Positions 1,096 to 46,346 are shown, numbered from the stretch's first letter. The stretch: DNA of 47,301 nucleotides from a virus (IMGVR_UViG_3300028840_007436:1-47301), one strand, 5' to 3'. A program made the numbers and translations. Notes: a model not told the origin generated them from the sequence alone.

Positions 1096-1515
1096 ATGGG
1101 CATAGCAACGTTAGAAGACACAAGTATTCCCTTAACTGTTACTCTTGGTGAAGATTGTGTCTGGAAGGATCAATGGGATTGGACTCCAGTTCCTCAAAAA
1201 GTCAGATTAACAATAGACGGAACTGCTGTTGTAGAAACCATTGCACCAAACTCAGCCACACAGCCAATTACTCTACACTGTAGTTGGCTAAATAAAGCAA
1301 CTGTTGATGATCTAATCCAGTTACGAGATAGGGCAGATCAAACAGTTATGACACTAACTCTATGTGATGGGACAACCAAAAGCGTATTGTTTTCTCATCA
1401 TAAGGGAATTCCAATTAAGGTTAGGCCAACTCTGGAAAGACCCGATTATGTGAATATTCCTGATCCAGATTGGTATGATGTTACTCTTAATTTGTTTGAT
1501 GCCTATGGTATGTAA
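1096..1515 (+). CDS. Hypothetical tail-region protein
   Basis: AGGAG RBS; 139 aa; W.DQWDW.PV.Q....IDG pattern resembles phage tail-associated proteins. Confidence 0.55.
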   Translation: MGIATLEDTSIPLTVTLGEDCVWKDQWDWTPVPQKVRLTIDGTAVVETIAPNSATQPITLHCSWLNKATVDDLIQLRDRADQTVMTLTLCDGTTKSVLFSHHKGIPIKVRPTLERPDYVNIPDPDWYDVTLNLFDAYGM

Positions 1516-1547
1516 ACAGGTTATGGAAAATTTTCCATAACCTGTTT
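1514..1547. repeat. Dispersed palindrome copy 1 (core GTTATGGAAAATTTTCCATAAC, 1520-1541)
   Basis: Perfect 34-bp palindrome AAACAGGTTATGGAAAATTTTCCATAACCTGTTT. Confidence 0.95.
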
Positions 1548-1589
1548 TGAGTTTGAATTGGGGAAGGCTCCTCCCTATTTTCAAAATAG

Positions 1590-1621
1590 AACGCCTCTGT
1601 TTTTTTAGGGGCGTTTTTTTT
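1590..1621 (+). terminator. Probable intrinsic terminator
   Basis: AACGCCTC...GGGGCGTT stem followed by a T-run. Confidence 0.5.
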
Positions 1622-1701
1622 ACATAAAGGGAACATACTATGGGACATCCAAAAAAAATTAACAGCATTAAAAAAATGATATTTCTTTTATAAATTTTTC
1701 T

Positions 1702-1920
1702 TTAATGAGAATAGTTATTATTATCCCAATCAGAATTTAAAATTGTTTGGAAAGTGTCATCTAATAATTCATCTGTTATGAGTTCTGAAAAATTCATTAT
1801 GATATTTTTAATATTAGACAATAATTCTTTATCAGATAATTGTGTAAAATCTGGCCCCTCTTTTTCTTTTATTTTAGTCGCAATAATTTTTGCTTGGTTT
1901 AAATTTATTTTCATCTTCAA
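1702..1920 (-). CDS. Hypothetical protein
   Basis: 72 aa ORF; start uncertain. Confidence 0.35.
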   Translation of the reverse strand: MKMKINLNQAKIIATKIKEKEGPDFTQLSDKELLSNIKNIIMNFSELITDELLDDTFQTILNSDWDNNNYSH

Positions 1921-2060
1921 TAACGTATAAAATGGTTTATTTAGTTTTTTTGTTAATAAAAAGTGAATTTTTAATTTGTAATTATGTAAAAAAAAATATG
2001 TTTAAGGTCAATCTTTTTATGGTGTCAAAATTTTGTCAATTCGTTCTATAAAGATACTTT

Positions 2061-2304
2061 TTGTTGACCATTTTGCAGACCATTTCTTGTAAAGCCTTGT
2101 CATATGGAGGTTACTCATCTTATTCGTAATCAGCAGGCCAGCGGTTCAAATCCGCTCGTCGGCTCTTCTTTAAAATCAATGATTTATATATAAATTAGGC
2201 TGCTTATAAAGCGGCCTTTTTTATTTCATACCTTAGCAAACTTAGACAAACTTAAGCAAATTGGAGGGTAAATTGCAGACCATTGCAGACCATTTTGCAG
2301 ACCA
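2061..2304. mobile_element. attP: core is the 3' half of tRNA-Thr(CGT) (about 2122-2164), with integrase arm-type repeats TTGCAGACCA
   Basis: TTCGTAA-TCAGC-AGGCC-AGCGG-TTCAAAT-CCGCT-CGTCGGC-T gives anticodon loop, T arm and 3' acceptor strand, but there is no 5' half; arm repeats at 2061 (variant), 2073, 2273, 2283, 2295; IHF-like AATCAATGATTTA at 2174-2186; adjacent to the integrase. Confidence 0.85.
2197..2222 (+). terminator. Terminator downstream of the att core
   Basis: AGGCTGCTT-ATA-AAGCGGCCT followed by a T-run. Confidence 0.6.
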
Positions 2305-2309
2305 TTTTT

Positions 2310-3287
2310 TTAATCAAAATTTAGTTTTTTGATCTCGTCCTTTAAGGTTTTTTCCAAGACATGAGTGTAAATTTGGGTGGTGGTTATCGAGGCATGTCCT
2401 AAAATGGATTGAACTATTCTTATGTCAATTCCGTTTTCAAGCATTTGGGTGGCTGCTGAATGTCTTAAATCATGAAAATTAGTATTTTCAATGTTACACA
2501 TTCTGGCAATTTTTTTATAATAGTGACTAACAGTGTCTTTATGCCATTGCCTAAAAATAGGCCCAAAGTTTTGTTTTTTCCCCATTGCTTCCAGAGCTTG
2601 AGGAATTAAAGGAATTAAGCGTTCTTTATGGCCTTTCCCTGTAACTTTAATAATATCATTAGATACATTCTGCCATTTAGCGTTTAATATTTCAGAGCGT
2701 CTGGTGCCAGTATATAGTGAGAATAATATTATACGATGCATTTCTGGCTTTGTTTTTTTTGCACAACTGATTATTAGTCTTCTTTCTTGGGGAGATAAAA
2801 CACGTTCTAAGGCTTTGCCAATTTTAAATAATTCAATTTTTATTTTCTTTTCAATATAATTTTCTTCATAGGCCCAGTTAAATGCTGCCCTGATATGACG
2901 TAGATAAACATTAATTCCAATATGACTAACGCCTCTATTTAGACAATTAATTTTAAAATCATTAATATGGTTTTTATTGATAATTTTTATCGATACATTA
3001 CCAATTGTATCTTGCAGCAAACGTAGTCCAAGCTCATCAGCTCTACGAGTATCATCTGAAAGATTTGCAGCAATTGATCTTTCTTCCATATATAATTTTT
3101 TGAAGTCATATAAATTGAGGCGTTTTTTCTTATCGAGAACTTTTATTTTTTGAGTATAATATTCACGTTTAAAGGCTTCAAAACGTTCTTTGGCAACATC
3201 TAAATTTTTAGTTTTTAAAGAGCGCACTTTGTTTCTTTTGATTTCAATGTAGTAAATCCCATCTCGTTTTTTTTTGAATATTCTCAT
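2310..3287 (-). CDS. int: Tyrosine integrase
   Basis: [38 protein letters not shown] (R-K-H-R-H-Y catalytic set); next to attP. Confidence 0.95.
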
Positions 3288-3538
3288 AATGAGTTCAAAA
3301 TATCTTTTGCAATTTGTGTGTTTTTGGCATCTATGTTAATTTGAGCCAATCTGTATTCATCAATTGACAACCTATCAAAGACCCATGCATTGGTTTTAAT
3401 GTCTTGATCCTTAAATGCTCTAATTTTCTTTTTTAGTGCTAATTCTTTTAAGCGTTTTACTCCAATTGAGGAATAAATGGAAGCTTCTTTTATTTTTAGC
3501 CACCTAGGGAATTGATTAATAACAATAGTTGATTGCAT
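3284..3538 (-). CDS. Excisionase-like HTH protein
   Basis: [28 protein letters not shown] winged-HTH pattern; overlaps the integrase start. Confidence 0.7.
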
Positions 3539-3539
3539 T

Positions 3540-3743
3540 TTATTTTCTAACTCCCTCCATCAGTTTAAATCTACCTTCTTTTGTGAGTGGGCAATTGACC
3601 ATATTGCCTTTACACCAGTCAGCATCTTTACGTTCGCCACTCATGTGGCAGAATTTATCTGGAAAAGATTTTGGTGTAGGATCTTGTGAAAATTCTTCAT
3701 AAAAAGGACACTGCATTATCTTTCTCCCATTTTTGACTGGCAA
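3540..3743 (-). CDS. Small Cys-rich hypothetical protein
   Basis: CPFY..C..C...CPL; probable start at MQCPF. Confidence 0.5.
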   Translation of the reverse strand: MPVKNGRKIMQCPFYEEFSQDPTPKSFPDKFCHMSGERKDADWCKGNMVNCPLTKEGRFKLMEGVRK

Positions 3744-4125
3744 TTTCTCCAGATTTTAAACATAGTGGCTTAGCATCTCTATTTCTTTCAAAATAATTAA
3801 AAATATCATTTAAGGTATTTATAATTTTTTGGTTGTGCGAAAAGCTGCTTTCCTCTATCATAGCAAGTAGAAAAGATACGACTGAAACAGTATGCCTTTG
3901 CTTTCCCTCCCACCCTGACGCTTTCCCAAAAAGTTTTATTCTATCGCTTATTTTATTTAGTTCATTGTAGGTTGGTTCTGGTAGCTTTGCTAATTCAGAA
4001 TCAACAAGCTTTAATAATTTTTCACACCTATTTTTAAGCCTTCCTGGGTTTAAACTTCCAACTATAAAATCAGGTAATGCCCTAATCATTGCCAATTCTG
4101 AATATTTTTCTATTTTATTTTTCAT
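3697..4125 (-). CDS. Hypothetical protein
   Basis: 142 aa ORF within the operon. Confidence 0.6.
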   Translation of the reverse strand: MKNKIEKYSELAMIRALPDFIVGSLNPGRLKNRCEKLLKLVDSELAKLPEPTYNELNKISDRIKLFGKASGWEGKQRHTVSVVSFLLAMIEESSFSHNQKIINTLNDIFNYFERNRDAKPLCLKSGEIASQKWEKDNAVSFL

Positions 4126-4127
4126 AT

Positions 4128-4547
4128 CTATTTATCTTTCCAGATTTTTAAACCTTTTTCAGCTCCTCTTGACACAATATATCCAGAAACACCAATTTTT
4201 AGAAGATTCCACATACTGGGAGGGATTTCTATCATAATGTGAATATCAAAAAGTGCAGAAAAATAAGGGTTTAAAATATAATTATTAAAAATAATTAAAC
4301 CAAATAAAGCCATTAAACCTGGCCTCCAGTTTTTTTGAAGCCAGCTTTCTCCTTTAATCTCTGAAATTATAATCTCTTTTTGTGATCTAATAAGCGCTTC
4401 AAATTCTTTTGCGTCTATTTTAGCTATTGCAATAGATAAAGCATTTTTGAGTTCACTCTTTTTATCCTTATCCTCAACTAATTCATCAATAACATCTAAG
4501 GTTTTTTCTATAATCTTTTCAATAACTGGAGTTGACTTTCCCCACAT
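4128..4547 (-). CDS. 3TM-type holin
   Basis: GESWLQKNWRP, hydrophobic segments, GYIVSRGAEK, typical of the 'holin of 3TMs' family. Confidence 0.75.
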   Translation of the reverse strand: MWGKSTPVIEKIIEKTLDVIDELVEDKDKKSELKNALSIAIAKIDAKEFEALIRSQKEIIISEIKGESWLQKNWRPGLMALFGLIIFNNYILNPYFSALFDIHIMIEIPPSMWNLLKIGVSGYIVSRGAEKGLKIWKDK

Positions 4548-4559
4548 AAGTCCTCACTT

Positions 4560-4595
4560 AAAATAGGTTATGGAAAATTTTCCATAACCTATTTT
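4560..4595. repeat. Dispersed palindrome copy 2 (core 4567-4588)
   Basis: AAAATAGGTTATGGAAAATTTTCCATAACCTATTTT. Confidence 0.95.
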
Positions 4596-4597
4596 GT

Positions 4598-4786
4598 TTA
4601 ATCTTCTTTCGGTTCGTAGCAAACAGCATTTGCGATATCCAATTGCTGTAAAGTTACTTCGACTGTAGAATAGATCAAATCGTTTAATTCAGACCAAGTA
4701 ATTTTTTTATCTGCCATTGCTTTCTCAATCTCCATCATTACTGGCATAGCAATCATCATGACTTTATTAATTTGACTAAAATTCAT
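4598..4786 (-). CDS. Hypothetical protein (probable start MNFSQ)
   Basis: AAGGAG RBS upstream of the ATG at 4786. Confidence 0.6.
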   Translation of the reverse strand: MNFSQINKVMMIAMPVMMEIEKAMADKKITWSELNDLIYSTVEVTLQQLDIANAVCYEPKED

Positions 4787-4814
4787 TTTTTTCTCCTTTA
4801 AATTAATTAATTGG

Positions 4815-4988
4815 TTACTTATCGTTTTCAACAACTTTTACGGACTTCTGGAACGCTTTAATTTGGTTTTCAAGCTCTTCAATTCGTGTTAGCAATCTTC
4901 TGATAATGCGGCCATCTTGTTTAGAGACACCTCCTAACTTCTGGAACAAAATCTTACCTAATGTTTTTAATCTTTCTGTTTCTATCAT
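4815..4988 (-). CDS. 57 aa hypothetical protein (absent from the ORF track)
   Basis: GGAG RBS; MIETERLKTLGKILFQKLGG...VVENDK*. Confidence 0.6.
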   Translation of the reverse strand: MIETERLKTLGKILFQKLGGVSKQDGRIIRRLLTRIEELENQIKAFQKSVKVVENDK

Positions 4989-5348
4989 TGTGCAATCTCC
5001 TTTTTTTCATTTTTTCAAAAAAAGAGATGAGTTTTTAAAAGCAACCTCCATTACGAATGAACAATAAAACTTTCCTTGAACCACTGAACTAATTTTTCTA
5101 AAAAATTATATTTTTTAGTGCAATGAAATTTTATCCTTTTAATTCAACCATGTATTGAAATTTAAACTCATCTCTTTTTTTGAAGCTATTTATAATAATT
5201 AGGAGCAGGAGGGGGAGTGCTCCTTGCATACACAAATAGCTTCAAAAAAATTATTTATTTTGATCCCTAATGTATGTATCCCAAATAATAATGAAAACAA
5301 TTATTACTGTAATTCCGATTATTGATAGACTTAATTCGATTATGTTTA

Positions 5349-5555
5349 CTACAAGTACCTTTCTTTAAATTCATAGAGCGCTTCTGAAATTTTATTTTTT
5401 ATTCTTGATTCAGCGATTTGAAACTCAGCGTCTGAAATAACAGGTTCAACTTTTAAAACGCCTTTAATCATATTCAGAGTTTCTAATATTTTATTCGATT
5501 CTTTTTCGTTTATCTTATTCTCAAGAATAATTATATATCCTTCATGTTCGGGCAT
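5349..5555 (-). CDS. Hypothetical protein
   Basis: 68 aa; translationally coupled; I..IKGVLKVEPV pattern. Confidence 0.6.
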   Translation of the reverse strand: MPEHEGYIIILENKINEKESNKILETLNMIKGVLKVEPVISDAEFQIAESRIKNKISEALYEFKERYL

Positions 5556-6019
5556 TATTTTCTGTTCCTTTTTCTTTTTTCTTTCTCTGTTGTTCTTGTT
5601 GTTTCCATATTGCGTACAGCACGTACTAAATATTTATTAGTCTTATTACTAAAAAAAACCGATCCTCTGTAAAAATCAAACCTCCAAGCAGAATCCTTAT
5701 CATAGGAATATTCTGTTGCAGACCAATATGTAGAATTTATACTGCAATCATGCAGTTGATTAATCTCCAAATAGTCAAAATAACAAACCATTTCTTTAAT
5801 GGTCGGTAGCCGCCAGTCATTATAAGATAAGATTTTTAAATCATTGCAAAAGTTTATTGCTTCAGACCAGCTTAGAACTGGTTTAAAAGTTTCAGACCAC
5901 ATTATATTGTTTTCTTCATCTATATAGGGGTTACCCAGTTTACTGTTGAGATAACCGTCGATAAAATTATTTAATTCTTTATTAAAGCATTCATCTCTTA
6001 TTAAATCTAGATGTTTCAT
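5555..6019 (-). CDS. DUF1566 (Lcl C-terminal, C-type-lectin-like) domain protein
   Basis: WSEAINFC, DWRLPTIKEM, YWSATEY, AWRFDFYRG, VRAVR. Confidence 0.85.
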   Translation of the reverse strand: MKHLDLIRDECFNKELNNFIDGYLNSKLGNPYIDEENNIMWSETFKPVLSWSEAINFCNDLKILSYNDWRLPTIKEMVCYFDYLEINQLHDCSINSTYWSATEYSYDKDSAWRFDFYRGSVFFSNKTNKYLVRAVRNMETTRTTEKEKRKRNRK

Positions 6020-6050
6020 AGCATCTCCGTATAGTAATTAAGTGATTAGT

Positions 6051-6701
6051 TTAAATATTATCAAAGATAATCGGTATTTCCTGCTTAAATGCTACCAGAA
6101 TATCTTTAAAAAGTGCCCTGATTTGGGGATGGGCCTTTATGGAAGCTCTCATATTAAACATATGCCTCCATTCTCTGACATTTGCAGTAACAACTATCTC
6201 TGTTTTCAAATCAATTGGCAGAACACCTCTCGCTTGTTCAGGACGCCAACCTAAATCAATAAGGTGCATATAATTTTTCTCACATTCCTGCATATGATTA
6301 ATCCATATAACAATGTCTGATTGCATTTTGGCTGCTTCTTTTAACAGCTCCTTTTTTTCGATCCAGACGGGCCGAATAAAATGTATATCATTGTGTTTTA
6401 TGAAACGTGTGCTTTCCTGAGAATAAGAAGCTAATCGATGCCTAACTAATTCATGAGTAACACCTCTATTGGTAATCAAACGAATAGACGCTATTACATG
6501 CTCAAGTACTGAGTGATGGCCATTATTAACAATCATTTGAACAAATTTCCTTGCAGAGTCTTCAGTAATCTTGTCTTCTGACTTATAGCAAGTGCGCCCT
6601 GCCTTTTCTATTGTCTTCAAGACATTTTCTGGTTTTTGCTCCCATTCCCAATATTGATCTATTATTTTCATATTATTTATTCCTCTCGTAAGAGTAAGCA
6701 T
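6051..6701 (-). CDS. thyX: FAD-dependent thymidylate synthase
   Basis: HHSVLEH, RGVTHELVRHRLASYSQESTR, ARGVLP, AHPQIR; probable start at MKIIDQ. Confidence 0.95.
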   Translation of the reverse strand: MLTLTRGINNMKIIDQYWEWEQKPENVLKTIEKAGRTCYKSEDKITEDSARKFVQMIVNNGHHSVLEHVIASIRLITNRGVTHELVRHRLASYSQESTRFIKHNDIHFIRPVWIEKKELLKEAAKMQSDIVIWINHMQECEKNYMHLIDLGWRPEQARGVLPIDLKTEIVVTANVREWRHMFNMRASIKAHPQIRALFKDILVAFKQEIPIIFDNI

Positions 6702-6904
6702 TCTTTATGCGGTATAATATAACCGTCTTCACTGGTTTCTAAACAGTCCTCCCCTGTACCAAAGCTCTTTCCGAACAGGCGACACTGATATGCTGTTCCA
6801 AAACGTGTTGATAATAGTTGAGGGCAAAATTCACTTGTTTTGAAATTTCTGGCACAAGTTACAGGTTTCTGTCCGTCTTCAAAGATTTCAATTGCAATTT
6901 TCAC
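6677..6904 (-). CDS. Cys-rich hypothetical protein
   Basis: 75 aa; coupled to its neighbours. Confidence 0.55.
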   Translation of the reverse strand: MKIAIEIFEDGQKPVTCARNFKTSEFCPQLLSTRFGTAYQCRLFGKSFGTGEDCLETSEDGYIIPHKECLLLREE

Positions 6905-7437
6905 AACTTTTCTCCGTTAGTTGCCAAGCAATCTCCGTTTATGCAGGCTCCCAAAGAGGGCAAGGCGGTATTAGGTCCAAAAGGGCAGTCAATGCATTTT
7001 GATTTTTCAACTTGCTCCAAGACTGCCATATCTTTCTTCTCGAATGTACGCTTAAAGCCATCTGGAATTGAAAAAGTTCGGTCATCAAATTCTGGTCGAT
7101 TGATTTCATACTCCATCAAGGCAAAACAGTTCCACACTGCATGAGCTAAATGATGCAGACCGTCTTTAGGATCTGACCGCTCACCTGCCCAAAAAGAATT
7201 TAAGTGTCTTTGCAGCGCTGCATAAATTCTAGAATAGCTTATGCCTTTTTCCCATGAGTGTTCTGGATACTCTATTCCAGCCCCTATATTGTACACCTTG
7301 GCAAGTTCCCATAGAGGATAAGGCGGTATTAGATCAAATCTGGCTTTATTGTCATCATATTTAGGAGCTTGTTCTAAATCTGATTTTTCTTTATTCACAA
7401 GTTCTATCTCCTTTAAGGTTTTGGCTATTGTTATCAT
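6901..7437 (-). CDS. dATP/dGTP diphosphohydrolase domain protein (DUF5664-like)
   Basis: KYDDNKARFDLIPP, SWEKG, YAALQRHL, DPKDGLHHLAHAVWN; probable GTG start at 7398 after AAGGAG. Confidence 0.8.
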   Translation of the reverse strand: MITIAKTLKEIELVNKEKSDLEQAPKYDDNKARFDLIPPYPLWELAKVYNIGAGIEYPEHSWEKGISYSRIYAALQRHLNSFWAGERSDPKDGLHHLAHAVWNCFALMEYEINRPEFDDRTFSIPDGFKRTFEKKDMAVLEQVEKSKCIDCPFGPNTALPSLGACINGDCLATNGEKL

Positions 7438-7451
7438 TCAATAGCATTTTA

Positions 7452-7486
7452 TCTATTATTTGATAGAATCAGAATTTATTTGGCAA
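7452..7486 (-). promoter_or_regulatory. Phage-specific promoter-like motif TTGCCAAAnAAAT-N12-AAAnAATAkA
   Basis: One of six fixed-spacing copies. Confidence 0.6.
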
Positions 7487-7531
7487 AAAAATTTAAAAAA
7501 ATTAATTATTTCTATTATTCAATAAAATTAA

Positions 7532-7711
7532 TTATTTATACAAACCATTGCCTAATCTTCCTGTTTCTTTTAGTTTTTTCAACTCTGCTCTTAGTTCTAA
7601 ATCTAAAATTTTTCGTTTTTTGTGGTATTCCAATTCTAAGGCTTTTAGCCTCTCTGAATATTGCTCAACTATGATTAATTCTTTTTCTAATAATGCCAAT
7701 TTATTCTCCAT
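7532..7711 (-). CDS. 59 aa coiled-coil hypothetical protein (absent from the ORF track)
   Basis: MENKLALLEKELIIVEQ...GLYK*; co-oriented with the operon. Confidence 0.55.
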   Translation of the reverse strand: MENKLALLEKELIIVEQYSERLKALELEYHKKRKILDLELRAELKKLKETGRLGNGLYK

Positions 7712-7792
7712 TTTTTTATTACCTTTTCAACTAAGTAAGTAATTAATTCAGACAAATTCAGACAAAAAAGGTAATATCAAAATTAACAAAAA

Positions 7793-7818
7793 AAGATATG
7801 GAAAATTTTCCATATCTT
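7793..7818. repeat. Dispersed palindrome copy 3, with a compensatory variant
   Basis: AAGATATGGAAAATTTTCCATATCTT. Confidence 0.9.
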
Positions 7819-9825: not shown

Positions 9826-9877
9826 TCCTTCCTCCCTCCATTCATATTATTGTTTATCTGTTACACCTGTCCCTTCA

Positions 9878-9912
9878 TATATTGTTTGATTAAATCAGGA
9901 TTTTTTTGGCAA
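9878..9912 (-). promoter_or_regulatory. Phage-specific promoter-like motif
   Basis: Reverse complement reads TTGCCAAAAAAATCCTGATTTAATCAAACAATATA. Confidence 0.6.
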
Positions 9913-10028
9913 AAAAATTTAAAAAAATTTAAAAAAATTAAAAAAAGTTTCCCTTGACATTGTCTGTCTGTTAATATAATTAATTAATTACTTAAATAAT
10001 TTTTTTTTAAACTATTAAGAGTCAATGT

Positions 10029-12801: not shown

Positions 12802-12837
12802 AAAACAAGTTATGGAAAATTTTCCATAACTTGTTTT
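12802..12837. repeat. Dispersed palindrome copy 4 (core 12809-12830)
   Basis: AAAACAAGTTATGGAAAATTTTCCATAACTTGTTTT. Confidence 0.95.
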
Positions 12838-13346: not shown

Positions 13347-13350
13347 TAAA

Positions 13351-13386
13351 AAAACAAGTTATGGAAACTTTTCCATAACTTGTTTT
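13351..13386. repeat. Dispersed palindrome copy 5 (core 13358-13379, one mismatch)
   Basis: GTTATGGAAACTTTTCCATAAC. Confidence 0.9.
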
Positions 13387-16980: not shown

Positions 16981-17002
16981 GTTATGGAAAATTTTCCATA
17001 AC
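16981..17002. repeat. Dispersed palindrome copy 6
   Basis: Exact 22-bp core just after the stop codon. Confidence 0.95.
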
Positions 17003-19199: not shown

Positions 19200-19221
19200 G
19201 TTATGGAAAATTTTCCATAAC
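19200..19221. repeat. Dispersed palindrome copy 7
   Basis: Exact core. Confidence 0.95.
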
Positions 19222-23892: not shown

Positions 23893-23914
23893 GTCATGGA
23901 AAATTTTCCATAAC
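23893..23914. repeat. Dispersed palindrome copy 8 (one mismatch)
   Basis: GTCATGGAAAATTTTCCATAAC. Confidence 0.9.
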
Positions 23915-25875: not shown

Positions 25876-25897
25876 GGTATGGAAAATTTTCCATATC
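25876..25897. repeat. Dispersed palindrome copy 9 (variant)
   Basis: GGTATGGAAAATTTTCCATATC. Confidence 0.85.
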
Positions 25898-29920: not shown

Positions 29921-29952
29921 AAAAGGTTATGGAAAATTTTCCATAACCTTTT
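29921..29952. repeat. Dispersed palindrome copy 10 (core 29926-29947)
   Basis: AAAAGGTTATGGAAAATTTTCCATAACCTTTT. Confidence 0.95.
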
Positions 29953-31854: not shown

Positions 31855-32193
31855 ATGTATTACAGAATTATTAAAACCTTTGAGGTTGCTGCCAGCCATT
31901 GCCTTAATCTTGATTACCCTAGTAAGTGTAAGACCCCACATGGTCATAATTTTATGATTACAGTCCATTGCGAGTCAGAAGAGCTAGATAAAAACGGTAT
32001 GGTAATTGATTTTTCTGAGGTTAAGAAAAAAATTTCGAGCAAGATAGATCATAAACATCTTAATACACTTTTTGATTTTAACCCTACTGCGGAAAATTTA
32101 GCAGAGTGGATCTGCGATGAGTTGGGAGATAAATGTTACAGAGTTGACGTACAAGAGAGTGAGGGCAATGTCGCTTCCTATTTTAGAGACTAA
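31855..32193 (+). CDS. queD: 6-carboxytetrahydropterin synthase
   Basis: ASHCL, CKTPHGHNF, GMVIDF, DHKHLN, PTAENLA. Confidence 0.95.
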   Translation: MYYRIIKTFEVAASHCLNLDYPSKCKTPHGHNFMITVHCESEELDKNGMVIDFSEVKKKISSKIDHKHLNTLFDFNPTAENLAEWICDELGDKCYRVDVQESEGNVASYFRD

Positions 32194-32788
32194 ATATCCA
32201 GTTGTCGAAATTTTTAAATCTTATCAAATGGAAGGTTTTAATCAAGGAAAAGAGGTTGTTTTTGTTCGTTTTGCTGGTTGTAATTTAGAGTGTGCCTGGT
32301 GTGATACCGATTATTCTAAAGCGTTTGAGATGTCAATTCCAGAGATAATAGATGTTATTTCTGATTTTGGCCTTTTTGATATTGTCATTACAGGTGGCGA
32401 GCCTACTATACATAATTTAGAGCAGTTCTTGAAAGCGTTGAAGATGTTTAAATCTTGGATTGCAATTGAAACTAATGGCACTAATAAAATTCCTGCAAGA
32501 ATTTCTAGATATCTTGATTATATCTCTGTTTCCCCTAAGAGTTGCTCTGTTAATGTTTTTCAAGCAAATGAAGTAAGGATCCCTGTAGATGGTGGGAGTT
32601 TCACTATTGAGTATCTAAAGCGCATCCAAAGATTAATTGAGGCAGATCGCTATTATCTTTCCCCAGTTGAAAGAGATGGAAAATTTGAGTTTATATCAGC
32701 GGTTACTTTGCTAAATCAGATAAATGGAGAGGTTGATAAGAAATGGAGATTAAGCCTGCAAACACACAAGCTATTAGGAATTCGGTAG
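32117..32788 (+). CDS. queE: 7-carboxy-7-deazaguanine synthase (radical SAM)
   Basis: EIFKSYQMEG, FVRFAGCNLECAWCDT, TGGEP, ETNG, SPK, SLQTHK; probable start at MSLPIL. Confidence 0.95.
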   Translation: MSWEINVTELTYKRVRAMSLPILETKYPVVEIFKSYQMEGFNQGKEVVFVRFAGCNLECAWCDTDYSKAFEMSIPEIIDVISDFGLFDIVITGGEPTIHNLEQFLKALKMFKSWIAIETNGTNKIPARISRYLDYISVSPKSCSVNVFQANEVRIPVDGGSFTIEYLKRIQRLIEADRYYLSPVERDGKFEFISAVTLLNQINGEVDKKWRLSLQTHKLLGIR

Positions 32789-34002
32789 GTACGATAAAGT
32801 GTGAAGTATGCGGTAAGAATTTCAGAAGGATTACCAATACCCATTTAAAGTCACATAATATGACTATGGCTGAATATCAGTCTAAGTATCCAGATTCTCC
32901 AATTGATTGTGATGGGCTGGCGCATAGTCGTGTGTCTCATTTACGAGGAAAAACATATAGCGAGGTATATGGTGAATCTAAATCTTTTGAATTGAAATCT
33001 TTAAGGTCAGACAATGCAGATAAACAATGGAAGAGTAATGAAAAAAACCTGCGAGTTAAAGAGCTGGCGTTAATTCGAAAAAATGATCGGAAGTTACAAA
33101 AAAAACTTAAGAGAATGCGTAAGTATGGAGAACATAGAGAAAGCCGCGTCTGTAAACAATGTGGAAATGTTTTTATTTATAAGATTGGGAATCATACTAA
33201 TGGTTCTTTTTGTAGCAAGGCATGTTTTCATCAGTTCGCAAAGGAAAATGCATCTAATTACAGAATTAAAGCCTTAGCATTGTTGCCTAATGAATGTTTT
33301 TTTTGCGGTAATGGTGAAAAACTTTATGTTCGTCATATTGATGGTGATCGTTTCAATAACGATATTGAGAATTTGCAGATTCTTTGCGCTCGCTGTCATG
33401 CAAAGATACATAAGGAAGATATTAGAAAATCAAGAGAAGCAAAATTTGCTGAAAGGAAGTTGCTTCGCGGTATTCGTGATATATTAACTGCAATGAATCT
33501 TGATTTGTCTGATCCTAATTTTAAACATACTCCCTTCAGAATCCTACAGAGTTTTTATGAAATATTTGAAGGTCTTTATAACGAAGAAGAAATAGAGGAA
33601 ATATTGTCAACAAGTTTCCCTTCAAATTACGAAGGTATTGTTCTTGCAGATAATATTGAGTGCTTTTCTATGTGTCCTCACCACTTTTTGCCTGTTCAAT
33701 ACACAATAAATCTTGGCTATATCTCTATGCAGAAAATGATTGGCTTGTCCAAGTTGCCCAGATTGGCTGAGTTGTTAGCAAAAAGGCCCGTTTTACAGGA
33801 AACTCTAACGGCAGAGTTGGCAGATGTTTTATATGAAACTTTAGATGCTGATGGTGTTATGTGTGTAGTTGAAGGTCAGCATATGTGTATGACTATGCGA
33901 GGTGTTAAGCAGAGGTCTGCCTCTGTAATTACTTCTGCAATCAGAGGAACTTTTAAAGACTACAATGTTCGTACTGAGTTTTTGAGGTTAATAGGAAAAT
34001 GA
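32743..34002 (+). CDS. folE: GTP cyclohydrolase I with N-terminal zinc fingers and an HNH domain
   Basis: TPFR, SMCPHHFLP, GLSKLPR, QE.LT, HMCMTMRGV; N-terminal HIDGDRFNNDIENLQILCARCH. Confidence 0.9.
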   Translation: MEIKPANTQAIRNSVGTIKCEVCGKNFRRITNTHLKSHNMTMAEYQSKYPDSPIDCDGLAHSRVSHLRGKTYSEVYGESKSFELKSLRSDNADKQWKSNEKNLRVKELALIRKNDRKLQKKLKRMRKYGEHRESRVCKQCGNVFIYKIGNHTNGSFCSKACFHQFAKENASNYRIKALALLPNECFFCGNGEKLYVRHIDGDRFNNDIENLQILCARCHAKIHKEDIRKSREAKFAERKLLRGIRDILTAMNLDLSDPNFKHTPFRILQSFYEIFEGLYNEEEIEEILSTSFPSNYEGIVLADNIECFSMCPHHFLPVQYTINLGYISMQKMIGLSKLPRLAELLAKRPVLQETLTAELADVLYETLDADGVMCVVEGQHMCMTMRGVKQRSASVITSAIRGTFKDYNVRTEFLRLIGK

Positions 34003-34409
34003 AACTTAAACTTAAACTTAGACACTCTGACGTTCCGATCATTCCAGTTGTTGTCTCGTATTGTTTGATGAATAATGTCAATTCATTAACAATTGGGGCC
34101 TGGGCAGTAACTTTTCGCAAAGATGGACCTGTATTTTCGTTTTTCCTGAAACCGTCTACCAGAACTTATGATCTTATTGCTGAAGGCTTTTTGCTCAAAG
34201 TGTATCAGGATTCTGATTACATGCGCTTTTCCAGATCAATTGATAAGTCACAGTTCCACATTGACAATCTTTTTTTGGAGGCAGAGGTTTTCAGGGTTAC
34301 TAATTTAGATGAATATCGTTTAATAGAGGCTAAGGTTCTATGTTGTTACCAGATCGAGTATTTTCAGACTCTATGCAGAGGTAGAAATGAAAAAATTAGT
34401 CTTACTTAG
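33999..34409 (+). CDS. Hypothetical protein within the que cluster
   Basis: 136 aa; overlaps folE and queC. Confidence 0.5.
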   Translation: MKLKLKLRHSDVPIIPVVVSYCLMNNVNSLTIGAWAVTFRKDGPVFSFFLKPSTRTYDLIAEGFLLKVYQDSDYMRFSRSIDKSQFHIDNLFLEAEVFRVTNLDEYRLIEAKVLCCYQIEYFQTLCRGRNEKISLT

Positions 34410-35832
34410 CGGAGGTGTAGACAGCAAAGTCCTTTTGCATAGGGTTGTTAAAAAATTTGGTAGTGAAAATGTTTATGCTTTGTTTTTTGCTATGCCTAAT
34501 AACAGATCTCATCTGACTTATGCTTCACAGCACGCAAAACAATATAGTGTTGAGTTTTTTATTTATTCTGTGGATATCTATAATAGTAACAATGAGATAC
34601 CTTTTAGAAATGCAGCTTTTATTTCTTTATCTCTGTATTTTGCTAAGATAAAAGAGTGCGATGAGATTTATATGGCCATTAAACGAGCTGGCCAGCATTA
34701 CTTGATGAAGACATGGTATGACTGTTCAGAGGCGTTTGTTAGGGATGTTAATGCGATTGCTGAAGCAGGTGGGCTTTCGGTTATTGCCCCTTTTGTTTCT
34801 TGGTCTACAAGAGATGTTTTTGAATATGCTAAGGAAGAGTTGGTTGATATTTCTGATTGCATATCATGTGATTTTGCTATTGCAGACAAGCACTGTGGTG
34901 TTTGTGGCAAATGCCTTGAAACAGCTTATGAGGCACAGCAATCAGGTCTTAAAACGGCAATAGAGGCAGATGTCTCCAGTTATTTTAGAATTGAGGAATT
35001 TCGTTTATATATAAATAATCTGTGTCAGAAGAATTGCAGTTTTTGTAGTTATGATCATCTTAGAAAAAAGCCTGACTATATGGATTTAGATTTTTTTTCA
35101 ACTTATGTCATTCCGAAAATTTTAAAATGGGATATTCGCAGTGTTATGATTAGTGGCAGAGAGCCTCTATATAATATTCAGCATTTTGAGAAAATTATAA
35201 CATCTCTGCGCTATCTGTATCATAAGAAAATCTATATCAATACCAATGGGATAAACCTTAAATATCTGAGTTGTAGTAACAACATAGATAAAATCTATTT
35301 ATCCCTCAATTATAAACACTTTGATATCTGTGAACTCAGTAATGCTCTGAAAAAAAAGATTACTTTATATTTTGTTCCTACCGAACCTATTGGCTATGAA
35401 TATTTGAAAAAAATTTATTTAGAGGGATATTTAGATCAGGGTGTTGATTCTATTTATCTACGTATGCCTATCTCTGTTGAGACAAGACCTTTTGTTAACG
35501 ATAAAACCAATTATCTAAATTGGTTGACGTATTTAAGCAAAATTGGGTTTACAGTTGAACCTCCATTTACTCATGATTCCTGTCAGCGATATAGAAGAAA
35601 TCTGACTATCCTTACAGATGGTGAGGTTTTGCCTTGCGCTAAGGACAGTTATAAAGAAATTTATGCAGGTTCTAATTATAATATAGAGGATCTGACTTTA
35701 GATATGTTGATGGGTGTTCCTGCCAGAAAGCAACTGTGTCCGATAATGGCTCAGGAGCAGCAAAATAGGATTAAATATGAGAGTTTTTTTGGCGACTGCC
35801 GAATCAGTCAGAAGCAGAGTCTATCTGCTTAA
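34387..35832 (+). CDS. queC: QueC-like preQ0 synthase fused to a radical SAM domain
   Basis: LSGGVDS, IPFRN, DCS..F, SC..HCGVCGKC; then CQKNCSFC, SGREPL, NTNG, TDGEVLPC. Confidence 0.85.
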   Translation: MKKLVLLSGGVDSKVLLHRVVKKFGSENVYALFFAMPNNRSHLTYASQHAKQYSVEFFIYSVDIYNSNNEIPFRNAAFISLSLYFAKIKECDEIYMAIKRAGQHYLMKTWYDCSEAFVRDVNAIAEAGGLSVIAPFVSWSTRDVFEYAKEELVDISDCISCDFAIADKHCGVCGKCLETAYEAQQSGLKTAIEADVSSYFRIEEFRLYINNLCQKNCSFCSYDHLRKKPDYMDLDFFSTYVIPKILKWDIRSVMISGREPLYNIQHFEKIITSLRYLYHKKIYINTNGINLKYLSCSNNIDKIYLSLNYKHFDICELSNALKKKITLYFVPTEPIGYEYLKKIYLEGYLDQGVDSIYLRMPISVETRPFVNDKTNYLNWLTYLSKIGFTVEPPFTHDSCQRYRRNLTILTDGEVLPCAKDSYKEIYAGSNYNIEDLTLDMLMGVPARKQLCPIMAQEQQNRIKYESFFGDCRISQKQSLSA

Positions 35833-36595
35833 ACACAATGTTCAGAACGTTTTATTTTCGTATCATATCATGAACAAGGGCAAGTTTGGCATTAACAATT
35901 ATGAAGCCGCAGATAAGCTCTTGTTTGATTTTAAAGGCAAGACAATTTTTTGTGATTCAGGGGCAGCCACTCTGCAAAAAGGGGTTACTCCAAAACAGTT
36001 TGATGACGTAGTTGTTGCTTATGGTGAGTTCCTCAAGAGATACTCTAAGCATTTTATCGGCTGTGCAGAGATGGATATATACAATCTGTTTCCAAAGGAA
36101 AAGATTCAAGAGGTGCGAAGGTATTTAGAGCAATTCTGCAATAATTTGATCCCTGTCTGGCATGTTAATATGGGTCTGAAAGACTGGAAGGCGTTTCTTG
36201 ATAATTATTCTTATGTAGCAGTAGGCATCACGAAGTTGGTTAAGGAGCCTGTTTTATTCAGATTGGTTAGGTTGGCTTACGAGGCTGGTGTGAAGGTTCA
36301 TGGCTTTGCTGTCACTACTAATGAAAAAATGATCAATATCCCTTTTTTTTCGGTAGACAGTTCAACTTGGATTAATGGGGATAAGTATGGAGAATATCAA
36401 GAATATGTGAATGGCAAAGTCATGAAATTCAAGAATGTACGAGCTAAAGAGAATATTAAAAGACGAAAGATCGAGCATGTTAATGTTTTTCTTAAGCCAA
36501 GCTTGAAGACGGAAAGAAATTTACTTGCCTTTCAGAAACTTGAAAAACACGTAACAAAATTATGGGCTAAGAGAGGAGTCGTTTGGGATGGCTAA
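35777..36595 (+). CDS. DpdA-like TGT-fold DNA 7-deazaguanine transglycosylase (putative)
   Basis: DSGA, IPVWH, KVHGFA, PFFSVDSSTW; directly after the preQ0 synthesis genes. Confidence 0.75.
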   Translation: MRVFLATAESVRSRVYLLKHNVQNVLFSYHIMNKGKFGINNYEAADKLLFDFKGKTIFCDSGAATLQKGVTPKQFDDVVVAYGEFLKRYSKHFIGCAEMDIYNLFPKEKIQEVRRYLEQFCNNLIPVWHVNMGLKDWKAFLDNYSYVAVGITKLVKEPVLFRLVRLAYEAGVKVHGFAVTTNEKMINIPFFSVDSSTWINGDKYGEYQEYVNGKVMKFKNVRAKENIKRRKIEHVNVFLKPSLKTERNLLAFQKLEKHVTKLWAKRGVVWDG

Positions 36596-37175
36596 AAAAA
36601 AGACAGATTCTTTATTTAAAAATTTTAAAGAGATTGCACTTGATAAGATAGCTACAGCCGATTGGAATTATAAAACAGATGATCCAGTTCTCTTAGAGAA
36701 GCTGGTAAATAATATTAAAACAAATGGTCAAATTGAGAATTTATTGGTTAGGAAGCTTGAAACTGGGTTTTATCAGTGTGTAAACGGCAATCATCGTATA
36801 GCTGCTTTGAATAAATTAGGAATTAAAACGGCAGTTTGTTATGATCTTGGAGATATATCTGATTACCAGGCTAAGCGTATAGCTATAGAGACGAATGAAA
36901 CAAAATTTGAGACAGATCAAGTTAAGTTGGCTGAGTTGATTGACGAGTTAAATTCTAAATATTCAATTGAGGAACTTTCTCAAACCATGCCCTACACTGG
37001 CGAAGAGATACAGGCGTTTAAGGATATGTTAGATTTTGACTTTTCGGAGTATGATACAGCAACAGACAATGACATAGATTCTGGTTCTGAAAAGGAAGAC
37101 AACAGTGAATTGTTTGAAATCGAATGTCCTCACTGTGGGGAGAAAATTTCTTTGATAGGTCAGGAAGTTGTTTGA
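36588..37175 (+). CDS. ParB/Srx-like domain protein associated with the modification cluster
   Basis: L.NNIKTNGQIENLLVR, VNGNHRIAAL; C-terminal CPHCG. Confidence 0.8.
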   Translation: MAKKKTDSLFKNFKEIALDKIATADWNYKTDDPVLLEKLVNNIKTNGQIENLLVRKLETGFYQCVNGNHRIAALNKLGIKTAVCYDLGDISDYQAKRIAIETNETKFETDQVKLAELIDELNSKYSIEELSQTMPYTGEEIQAFKDMLDFDFSEYDTATDNDIDSGSEKEDNSELFEIECPHCGEKISLIGQEVV

Positions 37176-37218: not shown

Positions 37219-37730
37219 AAAACAGGTTATGGAAAATTTTCCATAACCTGTTTTTGTTTTTAGATTCTGAAGTTATATAAATAATTGAAAAAAATTCATA
37301 TCATTTAAAAAAAACTGTTGACATAAAAAAGACAATATGCGATAAGTAGTTTAAGTTAGACGAAAAAACAATCAAACAGGTAAAAAAGGGGAGATAGACA
37401 TGATTAAATTTGTTATTCGCTATGATGAAAAAGCCAAAGCAAACTCAAAAAGATGCAATCATGAAATGAAAGTTTCCGAATATACTTTGGCTCAAGAGTG
37501 TGTAGAAATATTAAGAGAACAGGGATATAAATCAATTCATTTAATGGCTAAATAAAATAAAAACAAGTTATGGAAAAGTTTCCATAACCTGTTTTTGTTT
37601 TTAGATTCTGAAGTTATATAAATAATTGAAAAAAATTCATATCATTTAAAAAAAACTGTTGACATAAAAAAGACAATATGCGATAAGTAGTTTAAGTTAG
37701 ACGAAAAAAACAACAAACAGGTAAAAAAGG
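37219..37730 (+). repeat. About 171-bp direct repeat (37219-37389 and 37560-37730) containing palindrome copies 11 and 12 and a sigma70-like promoter
   Basis: Near-identical blocks offset by 341 bp; cores at 37226 and 37567; TTGACA-N17-GATAAG at 37318 and 37659. Confidence 0.92.
37400..37555 (+). CDS. 51 aa hypothetical protein between the direct repeats (absent from the ORF track)
   Basis: GGGGAG RBS; MIKFVIRYDEK...HLMAK*. Confidence 0.65.
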   Translation: MIKFVIRYDEKAKANSKRCNHEMKVSEYTLAQECVEILREQGYKSIHLMAK

Positions 37731-37745: not shown

Positions 37746-37780
37746 TTGCCAAATAAATAGTAAAAATTTTAAATAATATA
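37746..37780 (+). promoter_or_regulatory. Phage-specific promoter-like motif
   Basis: TTGCCAAATAAATAGTAAAAATTTTAAATAATATA. Confidence 0.55.
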
Positions 37781-37826
37781 TAAACGATTAAACTAAACAC
37801 TTACATAATTTAAAGGAGATAACATC

Positions 37827-39262: not shown

Positions 39263-39284
39263 GTTATGGAAAATTTTCCATAAC
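39263..39284. repeat. Dispersed palindrome copy 13
   Basis: Exact core. Confidence 0.95.
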
Positions 39285-41497: not shown

Positions 41498-41519
41498 GTT
41501 ATGGAAAATTTTCCATAAC
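41498..41519. repeat. Dispersed palindrome copy 14
   Basis: Exact core. Confidence 0.95.
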
Positions 41520-43478: not shown

Positions 43479-43500
43479 GTTGTGGAAAATTTTCCATAAC
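43479..43500. repeat. Dispersed palindrome copy 15 (one mismatch)
   Basis: GTTGTGGAAAATTTTCCATAAC. Confidence 0.9.
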
Positions 43501-43679
43501 CTGTTTTAAAATACGATATTTACAAAATAGGTAGTAAAAATATTGTTTTTGTCAGTTTTTTAAGTGTCTGAATTTATTGATAGCGATAGCTGATATCCCG
43601 AGGGTTGATAAAATCAGGTTTAAAAAAAATATAGTGATCTAAGTTGTTAAAACATATTGATTAATCAAGGAGCCAATCA

Positions 43680-43844
43680 ATGTTTGAAGAGATAACAGAG
43701 AGAGTTAAAAAAAGTACGCAAGATCAATATGTTAGCTTCCGTTTGGATTGGGTGACAAAGGGCTATATTCAGGAAATTCTTGGCGTTTTGGAGGAGAAAA
43801 TAAACGCTTTAGAGGATAAAATACGATATTTACAAAATAGGTAA
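43680..43844 (+). CDS. 54 aa hypothetical protein (absent from the ORF track)
   Basis: AAGGAG RBS; MFEEITERVKK...RYLQNR*. Confidence 0.6.
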   Translation: MFEEITERVKKSTQDQYVSFRLDWVTKGYIQEILGVLEEKINALEDKIRYLQNR

Positions 43845-43973
43845 TTTTGGCGTTAAATGTGGCTTTTTTTAACATATTGTTTTTTAAATAGATTTAGACG
43901 TTAGTTTTATAGACCCTCGGAGATATGGCCATAGCCCTAAAAAAAATATAGTGACCTAAGTTGTTAAAAAGGT

Positions 43974-44312
43974 ATGATTATGCCAGATAAAACAGAAATA
44001 AAGCCAACTTTTTGTGATTGCATGTTATGCAAAGAAATCACAAAAAAAGTTAGAAATAGAAACAAAGCTGAAAACAAATCAAAACAGTTTAAAGACAATA
44101 GAATCTGGCGCATCTTTCCAGGAGAATGGTGTCCTAAATGTGATACCCCTGTTGCTGTGTTTACAGCTCCTCTTTTACCAAATGGCTTTGCCTATGACAA
44201 AGATCCGATTCAATGCCCTCATTGCAATAAAAAAGGTCATTTTTCAATTGGTGTTAGGAGTCAATTTTTCCCTGCCAGAGTTAGGAATGTTATTATTTGG
44301 GAGGATGAGTAA
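43974..44312 (+). CDS. Zinc-finger hypothetical protein
   Basis: CDCMLC, CPKC, CPHC. Confidence 0.55.
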   Translation: MIMPDKTEIKPTFCDCMLCKEITKKVRNRNKAENKSKQFKDNRIWRIFPGEWCPKCDTPVAVFTAPLLPNGFAYDKDPIQCPHCNKKGHFSIGVRSQFFPARVRNVIIWEDE

Positions 44313-44652
44313 TGCATCAAAACGTAGATGCTGTTTTTTGTTCAGGTGGCTCAATATTTCAAAATATTTTTTTTGGTTTGGTTTTTTAGAATCTATTACA
44401 GATGTTCTAAGCAATATAGATATAGGTGCATTATGGTTGATGTTTCTATCTCTGGCACTTTTGTTATTGATTTTGTTAATAAGGCAGCTATGAGGCGTTT
44501 TGTAGAAAGCCTTAATATACAGGAAATGAAAGTGCAGTGTAGATATATGTGGGAGTGATTTAAAAAAAATATTCTTCAGAGCCTCTTTGGATTAAGCATT
44601 GCTTTGTTTTAACGAGAGGCTTTTTACAATATGTTTTTTTGAGGAGAAAAAA

Positions 44653-46171
44653 GATGGCTGAAGAAACAATTTTTAAACAGGTTAGTGAGCCTCTGGCAGA
44701 ATATGAAGCGTATATGGAGCGTCTTTATTTAATAAACACTCTTTTAGGTGGCACTCATGCAATGAGAGAAGCTGGTACTATGTTCCTGCCCAAAGAGCGT
44801 GGAGAGGAACAAATCAATTATGAAGCACGTCTGAAAAGAACCGTTTTGTTGAATGCTTTTAAGAGAACATTGCAGAAACTAACTGGGGAGGTTTTTGGCC
44901 GTAAAGAGACTTGGCATATTGATATGTATCCAGAACAAGAAAAAAACCAATCTCCTGCCTTAAAAAAACAAATGTATACAGGTGAATATGACGACTGGGT
45001 AAATAATATTGATCTTGCTGGAACAGATTTAAAAACATTTTCTCAAAATGTTTTTTTTCAAGGTATTGCTGATGGCATTACACATATCTTAATTGATTTT
45101 CCCTCTGTGTCTTCTGAAAAAACAGAAGCGGAGGCTAAAATAGAAAACATCAGACCTTATGCTGTTCATATTAAGGCAAAGGATCTTATTGGCTGGCGTC
45201 ATGAATACAGAAACGGAGTCCCTGCTCTTACTCAGATTCGTATTAAAGAATCTGTTCAGGAACCAGATGGGGACTTTGGTGTTAAGACAGTTGATTATGT
45301 TCGAGTTGTCAATGAAAATGATTGGCAGCTTTGGCGCAAGCTTGACGAAGATGAGGGCAAAATTAAAGATAAGGATAAATGGGTATTGGAACAAGAGGGA
45401 GCGCTTACGCTTGGGCACATACCTCTTCTTTCCTTTATTCCTGGGGAACGTCAATCTGCAACCTGCATGACAGCTATTCCTCCTTTGGAGGATCTTGCTA
45501 ATCTTAATCTTTGTCATTGGCAATCTTCATCTGATCAAAGAAATATCTTGCATTATGCCAGGATGATTATCTGGTTTGGCAAAAACTTAGACGTAGACGA
45601 TGAGGGCCAGGTTAAATTTGGTGCTAACCGCCTTATTCATTCCAATTCAACAGACGCTGATCTTAGAGTGGTAGAGCATTCAGGTGCAGCTATTGATGCT
45701 GGCAGACAAGATCTGAAAGATCTTGAATCTCAGATGGCCCTTTTTGGTTTGACGTTTATGTTGCCTAAGCAATCTGGTTCAATCACAGCAACTGAGAAGG
45801 CTATAGACGCTGCTGAAAATGAATCAGCACTGAAACAATGGGCAGGAGAGTTCAGTAGGTTGTTAAATCATATGTTCCAGGTTATGGCAGATTGGAAAAA
45901 ACAGCAATTTAATGGCATTATTGAAATTTCAACAGACTTTAGAGATTTTCTGGATTCTTTTGAGTTGGATATTCTTCTGAAAGCGTTTCAGGTCAAGCTG
46001 TTATCCAGACAGATTGTTTTTGAGGAATATAAACGTAGAGGCTTGGTAGATACTGAAATAGATTTTATTGATATGGTGGCTCAATTGGAAGATGATCAGA
46101 GATCGTCTTCAGGGAATGAGTTTGGTAATTTGGCAGGATCAATTTTGGGAACTCAGAAAGAGATTTTTTAG
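44653..46171 (+). CDS. Portal protein (DUF4055 type)
   Basis: LLGGTHAMREAG..FLP, YEARL, PPLEDLANLNLCHWQSSSD, TATE; follows terL; GAGGAG RBS before 44653. Confidence 0.88.
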
Positions 46172-46313
46172 CGAGGTAGTATAATGGCAATGCACAGGAA
46201 ATGGTGATATAGGTTCGATTCCTATGGTGTCGATGGCAATGCCTAAGGCGCTTAGTGTAATGGTAACACCCCTGAGATCTGTTATGTTGGTTCGAGTCCA
46301 ACCCTCGCTTCCA
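46170..46313 (+). ncRNA. Double tRNA-like RNA: two D arms, two T arms, cross-paired acceptor stems, no anticodon loop, encoded 3' CCA
   Basis: AGCGAGG/CCTCGCT-T-CCA; D arms GTAT-AATGGCA-ATGC and GTGT-AATGGTA-ACAC; T arms ATAGG-TTCGATT-CCTAT and GTTGG-TTCGAGT-CCAAC. Confidence 0.75.
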
Positions 46314-46324
46314 TTTCAAAACAA

Positions 46325-46346
46325 GTTATGGAAAATTTTCCATAAG
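46325..46346. repeat. Dispersed palindrome copy 16
   Basis: GTTATGGAAAATTTTCCATAAG. Confidence 0.9.

Follow-up and report, generated by a model that had tools for sequence, protein, structure and literature searches.

We analyzed a 47,301-nucleotide stretch of viral DNA (IMGVR_UViG_3300028840_007436:1-47301, referred to here as the window), which holds sixteen copies of a 22-bp palindrome and the gene for a ParB-like protein that we call ParB 37827 after its start position. The window is about half of a temperate, uncultured phage with a total length of 86.6 kb (~87 kb). For the other half we relied on overlapping records, one of which, 55 kb long and 99.8% identical to window positions 1-15915, contributes head and tail genes and six extra palindrome sites. 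In addition to terminase and portal genes, the window encodes a tyrosine integrase, DnaB with an intein, a primase, a CobT/CobS-like pair, DnaE, RecA, SbcCD, a 7-deazaguanine (que) cluster, and two ParB_N proteins. The best matches to DnaE among 50,697 phage records are in Rhizobium and SSU5-like phages (30-32% identity), and the regulators of the phage include two XRE genes (14330 and 31242) and one RHH gene (10029). Coordinates are collected in Table 1.

The original prediction gave a start position for each of the sixteen cores, and our scan of the window with the 22-mer found every one of them to be exact. Nine copies are perfect, five carry one change, and two carry two changes, while the next-best match anywhere in the window has at least six mismatches. 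At a limit of three mismatches there are 16 matches, compared with a mean of 0.01 in shuffled sequence, and none of 100 shuffles reached 16. Most copies have AAAACAG/CTGTTTT flanks, with which the palindrome spans 30-36 bp. All sixteen are intergenic, as claimed, provided that the gene next to the copy at 25876 starts at the ATG at 25934, with ribosome site GGGAAGGAG, and not at the TTG at 25862. Minus-strand operons hold just 2 of the 16 copies (4567 and 7795). The largest gap in the window, from 29926 to 37226 (7300 bp), does cover the que cluster, and the largest gap in the whole phage is 15 kb, over the tail genes.

Changes in one arm of the palindrome had been described as matched by changes in the other. 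We found that 236 of 242 pairs in the 22-mer are complementary, compared with 231.8 when the right arms are re-dealt (P = 0.003), and that pairing extends into the flanks (87/110 versus 80.8; P = 0.04); the copies are not independent, and copying of a single variant may account for the GATATGG/CCATATC form. The phage as a whole has 22 sites in 86.6 kb, with a mean spacing of 3.9 kb. In all 22, the 14-bp core TGGAAAATTTTCCA is invariant save for the central pair. This central base pair is self-complementary in 20 of the 22 sites and in 65 of 66 sites in nine other elements. Such self-complementarity is expected of a two-fold DNA site, and an RNA loop would not need it.

Table 1. Positions of the palindromes, the candidate binder, and associated features in the window
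Feature	Position	Strand	Remarks
Palindrome copy 1	1520..1541		4 bp past stop, between convergent units; separate GC hairpin terminator at 1588-1617
Palindrome copy 2	4567..4588		Fills 50-bp gap ahead of holin gene, minus-strand operon
Palindrome copy 3	7795..7816		Paired change GATATGG/CCATATC; abuts helicase stop
Palindrome copy 4	12809..12830		33 bp past DnaB stop; right-arm-like half site at ~12860-12877
Palindrome copy 5	13358..13379		Centre A to C; ahead of primase gene
Palindrome copy 6	16981..17002		1 bp past CobT-like stop; ~52 bp upstream of TTGACA (promoter by eye)
Palindrome copy 7	19200..19221		
Palindrome copy 8	23893..23914		Between promoter-like motif (23807) and ribosome site; 14-bp core perfect
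Palindrome copy 9	25876..25897		Between recA and BRO-N gene (start 25934)
Palindrome copy 10	29926..29947		After sbcC
Palindrome copy 11	37226..37247		Left edge of first 171-bp repeat
Palindrome copy 12	37567..37588		Centre T to G; borders second 171-bp repeat on its left, with parB 240 bp further downstream
Palindrome copy 13	39263..39284		
Palindrome copy 14	41498..41519		Ahead of small terminase promoter region
Palindrome copy 15	43479..43500		10 bp past large terminase stop
Palindrome copy 16	46325..46346		After portal gene
Likely cognate ParB protein, 284 aa	37827..38681	+	ParB N-terminal NTP-binding fold, HTH, and helical C-terminal part
Two 171-bp direct repeats (97%)	37219..37730	+	Each with palindrome and sigma-70-like promoter; TTGACA at 37318 and 37659
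Promoter-like motif TTGCCAAATAAAT (37746) and second dispersed motif (37791)	37746..37807	+	Directly upstream of parB
Tyrosine integrase (2310-3287) within context region	2100..3287	-	tRNA-like 3' fragment at ~2100-2170 alongside
7-Deazaguanine cluster: QueD, QueE, FolE, QueC, TGT-like	31855..37175	+	Directly upstream of parB region; palindrome-free
Second ParB_N protein	36588-37175	+	No HTH match

Pattern scans of viral and metagenome contigs led us to other elements with the same site. Nine other stretches share the 14-bp core TGGAAAATTTTCCA. The multi-site elements have a GC content of 39-54% and almost no genes in common with this phage. They include a 23-kb contig with 10 exact cores, L074 with 7, the provirus G001 with 8, G311 with 4, and L052 with 3; G310 has 10 cores in 47 of its 50 kb, and G312 has 14. 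TGGAAA-NN-TTTCCA is kept by all of them, and the outer bases are element specific. Because tail genes are common to G310, G312, and the 23-kb contig, these three count as one lineage.

The protein that goes with the site is a family that includes ParB 37827. When 91 phage proteins were compared with the nine other site-bearing stretches, only ParB and a generic SF2 helicase matched three of them, in a tblastn table that undercounts, as it missed the G001 homolog found by blastp and by profile. We also ran a motif-first test, a scan for variant cores that made no use of the protein. It returned two multi-site phages, 100% and 90% complete, with 10 and 14 sites. Both of these phages, each at least 90% complete, encode the ParB family (E values of 4e-33 and 2e-35), and the genes themselves are without the site. 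A third near-complete record, with two adjacent matches, had a short match to the helix-turn-helix (HTH) region only (E = 3e-4). In G001, one core in addition to the 8 exact ones lies inside the ParB gene, just before the HTH (homolog E = 7e-36). L051/L052 combines 3 sites with a 27% homolog of ParB 37827, and in L040 the site lies 2 bp past the end of a 31% homolog.

The association was also seen outside viruses. The cyanobacterial plasmids W03 (4 sites) and W04 (10 sites) both encode the ParB family, with an exact in-gene copy plus 3 and 9 dispersed ones, several of them just past stop codons and three of them near the relaxase region. In W04, three core copies at 229819-230129 lie between the mobC-like/relaxase genes and the next operon, in a likely oriT region, and one further copy lies inside the relaxase gene of both plasmids. 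Among 98 single-match viral loci, 14 carry the family, all with the match in the gene, compared with none of the 84 others (some loci are redundant). In the collections searched, 1 of 50,697 cultured-phage records matched a family member, and a family profile run over 301 genomes of one phylum gave just 2 matches, to the N-terminal domain only. L060 and L061 encode distant members with other recognition helices and are without dispersed sites.

ParB 37827 matches PF02195 (E = 2.5e-11) and has GHRR and ESNxxR motifs. The Box II/III residues G55, R58, N92, and R95 are present in 149-150 of 150 homologs. An AlphaFold model (pLDDT 87) places the HTH at ~140-172, with helices at 140-148 and 154-172, and the 150 homologs share a conserved RD..A..G.SG[KR]T there; Pfam HTH_ParB gave no match to the protein. 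The best solved fold matches are KorB (8qa9 at the top), Noc, and ParB (7ng0, 7ol9, and 7bm8), at 15-20% identity. The ParA-binding motif (L/F/I)G(K/R)G(L/F/I), as defined in PMC12704722, was not found in ParB 37827. No ParA was found among the 98 open reading frames (ORFs) scanned in the phage (62 + 36; a few kb and three small ORFs lie outside the scan), nor was the ParA family PF13614 found in G310, G312, or G001. Single-protein searches for close relatives of ParB 37827 gave nothing useful. Upstream of parB, the 171-bp repeats flank a 51-aa ORF and run into the gene. The two sigma-70-like promoters, the phage-type promoter motif, and the second motif in this region suggest expression in lytic growth, possibly early or middle.

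In many relatives of ParB 37827, the site appears to be written into the gene itself. The palindrome translates as M-E-N-F-P, and in an alignment-based count over 149 of the 150 best profile hits, 37 have [EG]N[FSL][PS] in the 22-residue stretch that precedes the HTH, compared with 2 of 2126 other windows. The alignments A2 and A3 were chosen from parsed hits and are biased toward the linker motif. In-gene copies occur in three frames (MENFP, YGNISI, and WKNFST), and the plasmids W01 (Gloeocapsa) and W02 (Brasilonema) have different 26- to 28-bp palindromes at the same in-gene spot. Thus, the DNA symmetry and not the peptide is conserved. The linker motif goes with recognition helices that open with G-[KR] (29/75 versus 8/74; P = 1e-4, kinship ignored). 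In-gene sites may be common in other phage DNA-binding families too. The BRO-N antirepressor-like gene of the window has a single palindrome with 13-bp arms (26085-26113) in a variable segment, which occurs once in the window, and the BRO-N gene of G001 has another in a like place. We rejected BRO-N as the binder: the internal palindromes of the two genes differ while the dispersed core is the same.

These data point to the palindromes as docking sites for the phage's own ParB 37827, a dimer of which would read the core, and we put the probability of this reading at about 0.8. The original prediction of a genome-wide site system stands, supported by the 22 sites across the phage and by the comparative data. 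It had named this ParB as one of several candidate binders, acting at dispersed parS-like sites; the comparative data pick out the protein, and a partition system is probably not present, since ParA was not found. The lack of a ParA match favors a genome-wide clamp of the KorB/Noc type over partition. On balance we lean toward such a clamp, which would act on transcription or genome organization.

Several observations weigh against docking by ParB 37827, and two more are given with RNA hairpins below. No family match was found in three multi-site fragments of 23, 14, and 10 kb (46, 29, and 21% complete). The independent site-bearing lineages number about four, and W03 and W04 were reached via the protein; both plasmids also encode ParA, far from their ParB-family genes. 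ParB 37827 scores 48.3 bits against a TIGR00180 cutoff of 58.45 and is also below the Noc cutoff. Its linker (DENKEG) is without the in-gene palindrome, in place of which two copies lie upstream; with the in-gene site lost from this gene, the link in this phage rests on co-occurrence and on likeness of the HTH. We considered whether every in-gene palindrome is also dispersed. This fails, as W01 and W02 hold the in-gene copy only; of 12 in-gene loci checked, all but one had no more than a single additional near match in 10-20 kb of retrieved sequence. The spacing of the sites is not significantly more even than that of random gene junctions (P = 0.07). Finally, the nucleotide bound by an orphan ParB is described as not predictable (PMC12704722).

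If ParB 37827 is the binder, its dimer would read core TGGAAAATTTTCCA with one half-site per HTH. By analogy with ParB, Noc, and KorB, the protein would load at the palindromes, bind nucleotide (for those three proteins, CTP), close, and slide. With nucleotide-bound closing and sliding, sites ~4 kb apart could cover the phage chromosome in lytic growth. The clamp might dampen transcription, or insulate it, both at gene junctions and at promoters lying 20-200 bp from a site. We infer that the family's site first arose in the linker codons of its own gene, where it would have been autoregulatory, and that this lineage lost the in-gene copy to decay as further copies came to occupy gene junctions. 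An added function as RNA hairpins at the ends of transcripts may come from the long A/T flanks, which are peculiar to this phage.

One alternative keeps ParB 37827 as the binder and makes self-marking its function: the clamp would recruit or repel enzymes, such as the 7-deazaguanine system or an SbcCD-like nuclease. The parB gene directly follows the QueD/QueE/FolE/QueC/TGT-like cluster, the structural neighbors of ParB 37827 in Atlas include ParB fused to N6/N4 methyltransferases, and DNA modification in the course of packaging has been predicted for ParB-terminase loci of phages (PMC4738411). However, no enzyme domain is fused to ParB 37827, and the que cluster itself is the longest site-free stretch of the window. 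Furthermore, the que proteins had no match in any of the nine other site-bearing stretches, and thus the link between parB and que is not conserved. We regard this alternative as rather unlikely. We also hold as unlikely, if a little less so, the broader idea that linker-written and dispersed sites define a widespread self-address class of ParB-fold proteins on phages and plasmids; in this phage the clamp would coat the chromosome and steer 7-deazaguanine modification or a nuclease, and so set phage DNA apart from that of the host.

The copies could also be mainly RNA hairpins that act at gene ends, either as intrinsic terminators or as processing stems of the RNase III type. The longest copies form 16-bp stems of about -20 kcal/mol, and six copies in the first 20 kb were flagged as terminator-like. 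For most sites a stop codon is no more than 35 bp away and the 3' flank is U-rich, and among mismatches on the transcribed strand G-U outnumbers A-C by 12 to 4 (one-sided P = 0.04); these are the two points that tell against protein docking. However, 9 of the 12 G-U cases fit a C-to-T change on the coding strand equally well. Terminator features are present in the long copies and weak at 23893 and 46325; the copy at 23893 has the weakest hairpin of six that were folded (-8.1 kcal/mol). The nine other elements keep only a 14- to 20-bp core, mostly without U tails, the would-be loop remains self-complementary, and many copies lie 5-45 bp ahead of the next start, with no space for a promoter. Rfam gave no matches at the gathering score. 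A hairpin role would also leave the tie to one protein family unexplained. Hairpins, another of the original candidates, are improbable as the main role of the palindromes; in this phage they may still serve secondarily in termination or processing.

Just as improbable, in our judgment, is that ParB 37827 binds the palindromes as a true centromere, with dispersed parS sites that borrow host ParA or SMC for the unintegrated phage chromosome. The ParB fold has intact Box II/III residues, and the replication module is like that of SSU5-like and Rhizobium phage-plasmids (30-32% DnaE identity). Phage N15 reportedly has dispersed centromere sites. However, the scanned ORFs gave no ParA match, nor did G310, G312, and G001, and the ParA-binding motif is missing from the protein. 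The phage also has an integrase with an att candidate; as it can integrate, partition is not obviously needed. The attP candidate (2060-2305) is mid-contig. By eye, GCAGACCATT repeats lie on either side of a fragment at ~2100-2170 that resembles the 3' part of tRNA-Thr(CGT); ARAGORN called no tRNA gene there.

The palindromes could also be operators or stoperators of a phage XRE or RHH repressor, the XRE proteins being among the original candidates. This temperate phage does have two XRE genes and one RHH gene. The phiC31 conserved inverted repeats and the SPbeta repeated elements are said to be likewise many conserved intergenic phage sites; an attempt to confirm this for phiC31 turned up no relevant paper. 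Stoperators are many sites over a genome (PMC9283540). However, no homolog of either XRE protein was found in G310, G312, G001, W03, or W04 (5/5; short proteins can be missed), and the control regions at 9825-10029, 14728-15042, and 30878-31855 are without the palindrome and carry AAYTAA-N4-TTASTTA in its place. We give this alternative very little weight.

AAYTAA-N4-TTASTTA is a second dispersed motif and a better candidate for repressor operators or stoperators than the palindrome. It is found at 4805, 6035, 7732, 9978, 14840, 15000, 17078, 18238, 18764, 23852, 26638, 29898, 31810, 37791, 39235, and 41545, with ~5 more in the structural half. We counted 29 matches compared with 1.5 by chance, in a shuffle control that is partly circular because the pattern was drawn from the same sites. 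The second motif is oriented, mostly with transcription, whereas the palindrome is symmetric and has no orientation; it lies just past -10 boxes or stops and before ribosome sites, with copies in the control regions of the XRE and RHH genes. A third motif consists of TTGCCAAAYAAAT and then TYAAAT ~17 bp after TTGCCA; it is found at 7474, 9900, 10284, 13012, 23807, and 37746, upstream of replication genes. It is likely a phage-specific promoter, and the protein at 18266-18769, which resembles sigma-70 region 2 (an Atlas lead from 24% of one cluster), might recognize it.

Module shuffling at recombination points, the last of the original candidates, is about as doubtful as repressor operators; the reader of the sites would be a tyrosine recombinase. 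The 171-bp duplication starts at a palindrome, and the 20-mer TTATGGAAAATTTTCCATAA is found at one end of five recombinase-associated elements, adjoining CATAA-N6/7-TTAT junctions. However, a second assembly is collinear through all sites (43,360 aligned bases), a symmetric centre would give no direction, the N6 flanks are not kept in other phages, and separate arm-like repeats for the integrase lie close to att. We read TTATGGAAAATTTTCCATAA at these elements as convergence on TTATG/CATAA arms. In the five (L024, L029, L050, L057, and L059), a 6-bp target copy is inverted alongside TTATGGAAAATTTTCCATAA. Three of them interrupt istB at Walker A codons, L050 has three tyrosine recombinases, and all five resemble recombinase-in-trio transposons. 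Finally, a host REP-like repeat or an assembly artefact can practically be discounted: public contigs do break at copies, as repeats do (three DNA runs; such contigs cannot show rearrangement), but the exact 20-mer occurs at only 12 single places in 185,579 species genomes, each of the four such genomes that were checked has a single copy, and two further assemblies and two public runs have the same copies with the same flanks.

Docking by ParB 37827 would resemble two systems of a known kind, KorB/OB and Noc/NBS. KorB of the IncP-1 plasmid RK2 is a ParB-fold CTPase with an HTH that represses from short palindromic operators of 16 bp, lying near or far from promoters (4 bp to >1 kb) (PMC11790492). 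In contrast, ParB 37827 is on a phage, has no identified IncC/ParA or KorA-like partner, and is 16% identical to KorB; the site sequence is another, many relatives carry the site in linker codons, and any repression is a prediction. The parS and NBS cores are 14-bp palindromes read by a ParB-type HTH dimer, and Noc is an orphan ParB that acts without ParA (PMC7383237). Core TGGAAAATTTTCCA differs from TGTTTCACGTGAAACA and ATTTCCCGGGAAAT, and the sites here are on a phage genome.

Other mobile elements offer partial likenesses. Orphan phage ParB-fold proteins, including methyltransferase fusions, have the ParB fold without the ParA-binding motif; the main text describing them gives no DNA site and does not use the word palindrome, and ParB 37827 is without a fused enzyme (PMC12704722). 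HerB/YfjB is likewise a ParB fold on a mobile element, but HerB is described as acting on host chromosomal sites (PMC13370423). Mycobacteriophage stoperators, too, are conserved sites that recur between genes throughout the genome of a temperate phage; however, they are asymmetric and bound by the immunity repressor, whereas the palindrome tracks a ParB-family gene (PMC9283540). Searches of the open literature, supplements aside, turned up no paper that describes this site, dispersed sites of stand-alone phage ParBs, or linker-encoded sites. Orphan ParB-fold proteins are common on phages and are without DNA targets in the articles examined, as far as their available text goes. What the present case adds is a protein together with a 14-bp site, and a rule by which the site can be read from linker codons. 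If the reading is right, phages would use a KorB/Noc-like sliding clamp as a genome-wide layer of control or marking beside an ordinary repressor circuit, and ParB 37827 with its site would make a new orthogonal ParB/parS tool for DNA labelling.

We made several minor observations. Just ahead of the last palindrome, a degenerate tRNA-like sequence with a CCA end lies at 46232-46313 (no ARAGORN or Rfam call). The long CAA/CAG repeat at 15580-15990 is the poly-Q/E tract of the CobT-like protein, and its length varies between assemblies. FolE is fused to Ros/MucR-like zinc finger and HNH domains (32743-34002), and DnaE has a C-terminal UDG-like domain (19642-22863). Five assembly differences are clustered at 9959-9970, within the spacer of the RHH gene promoter. 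A sensor-like moron with SBP_bac_3, Hpt, and PAS domain proteins lies in the head-tail region (L049, 14140-16650, and L043, 1832-4366).

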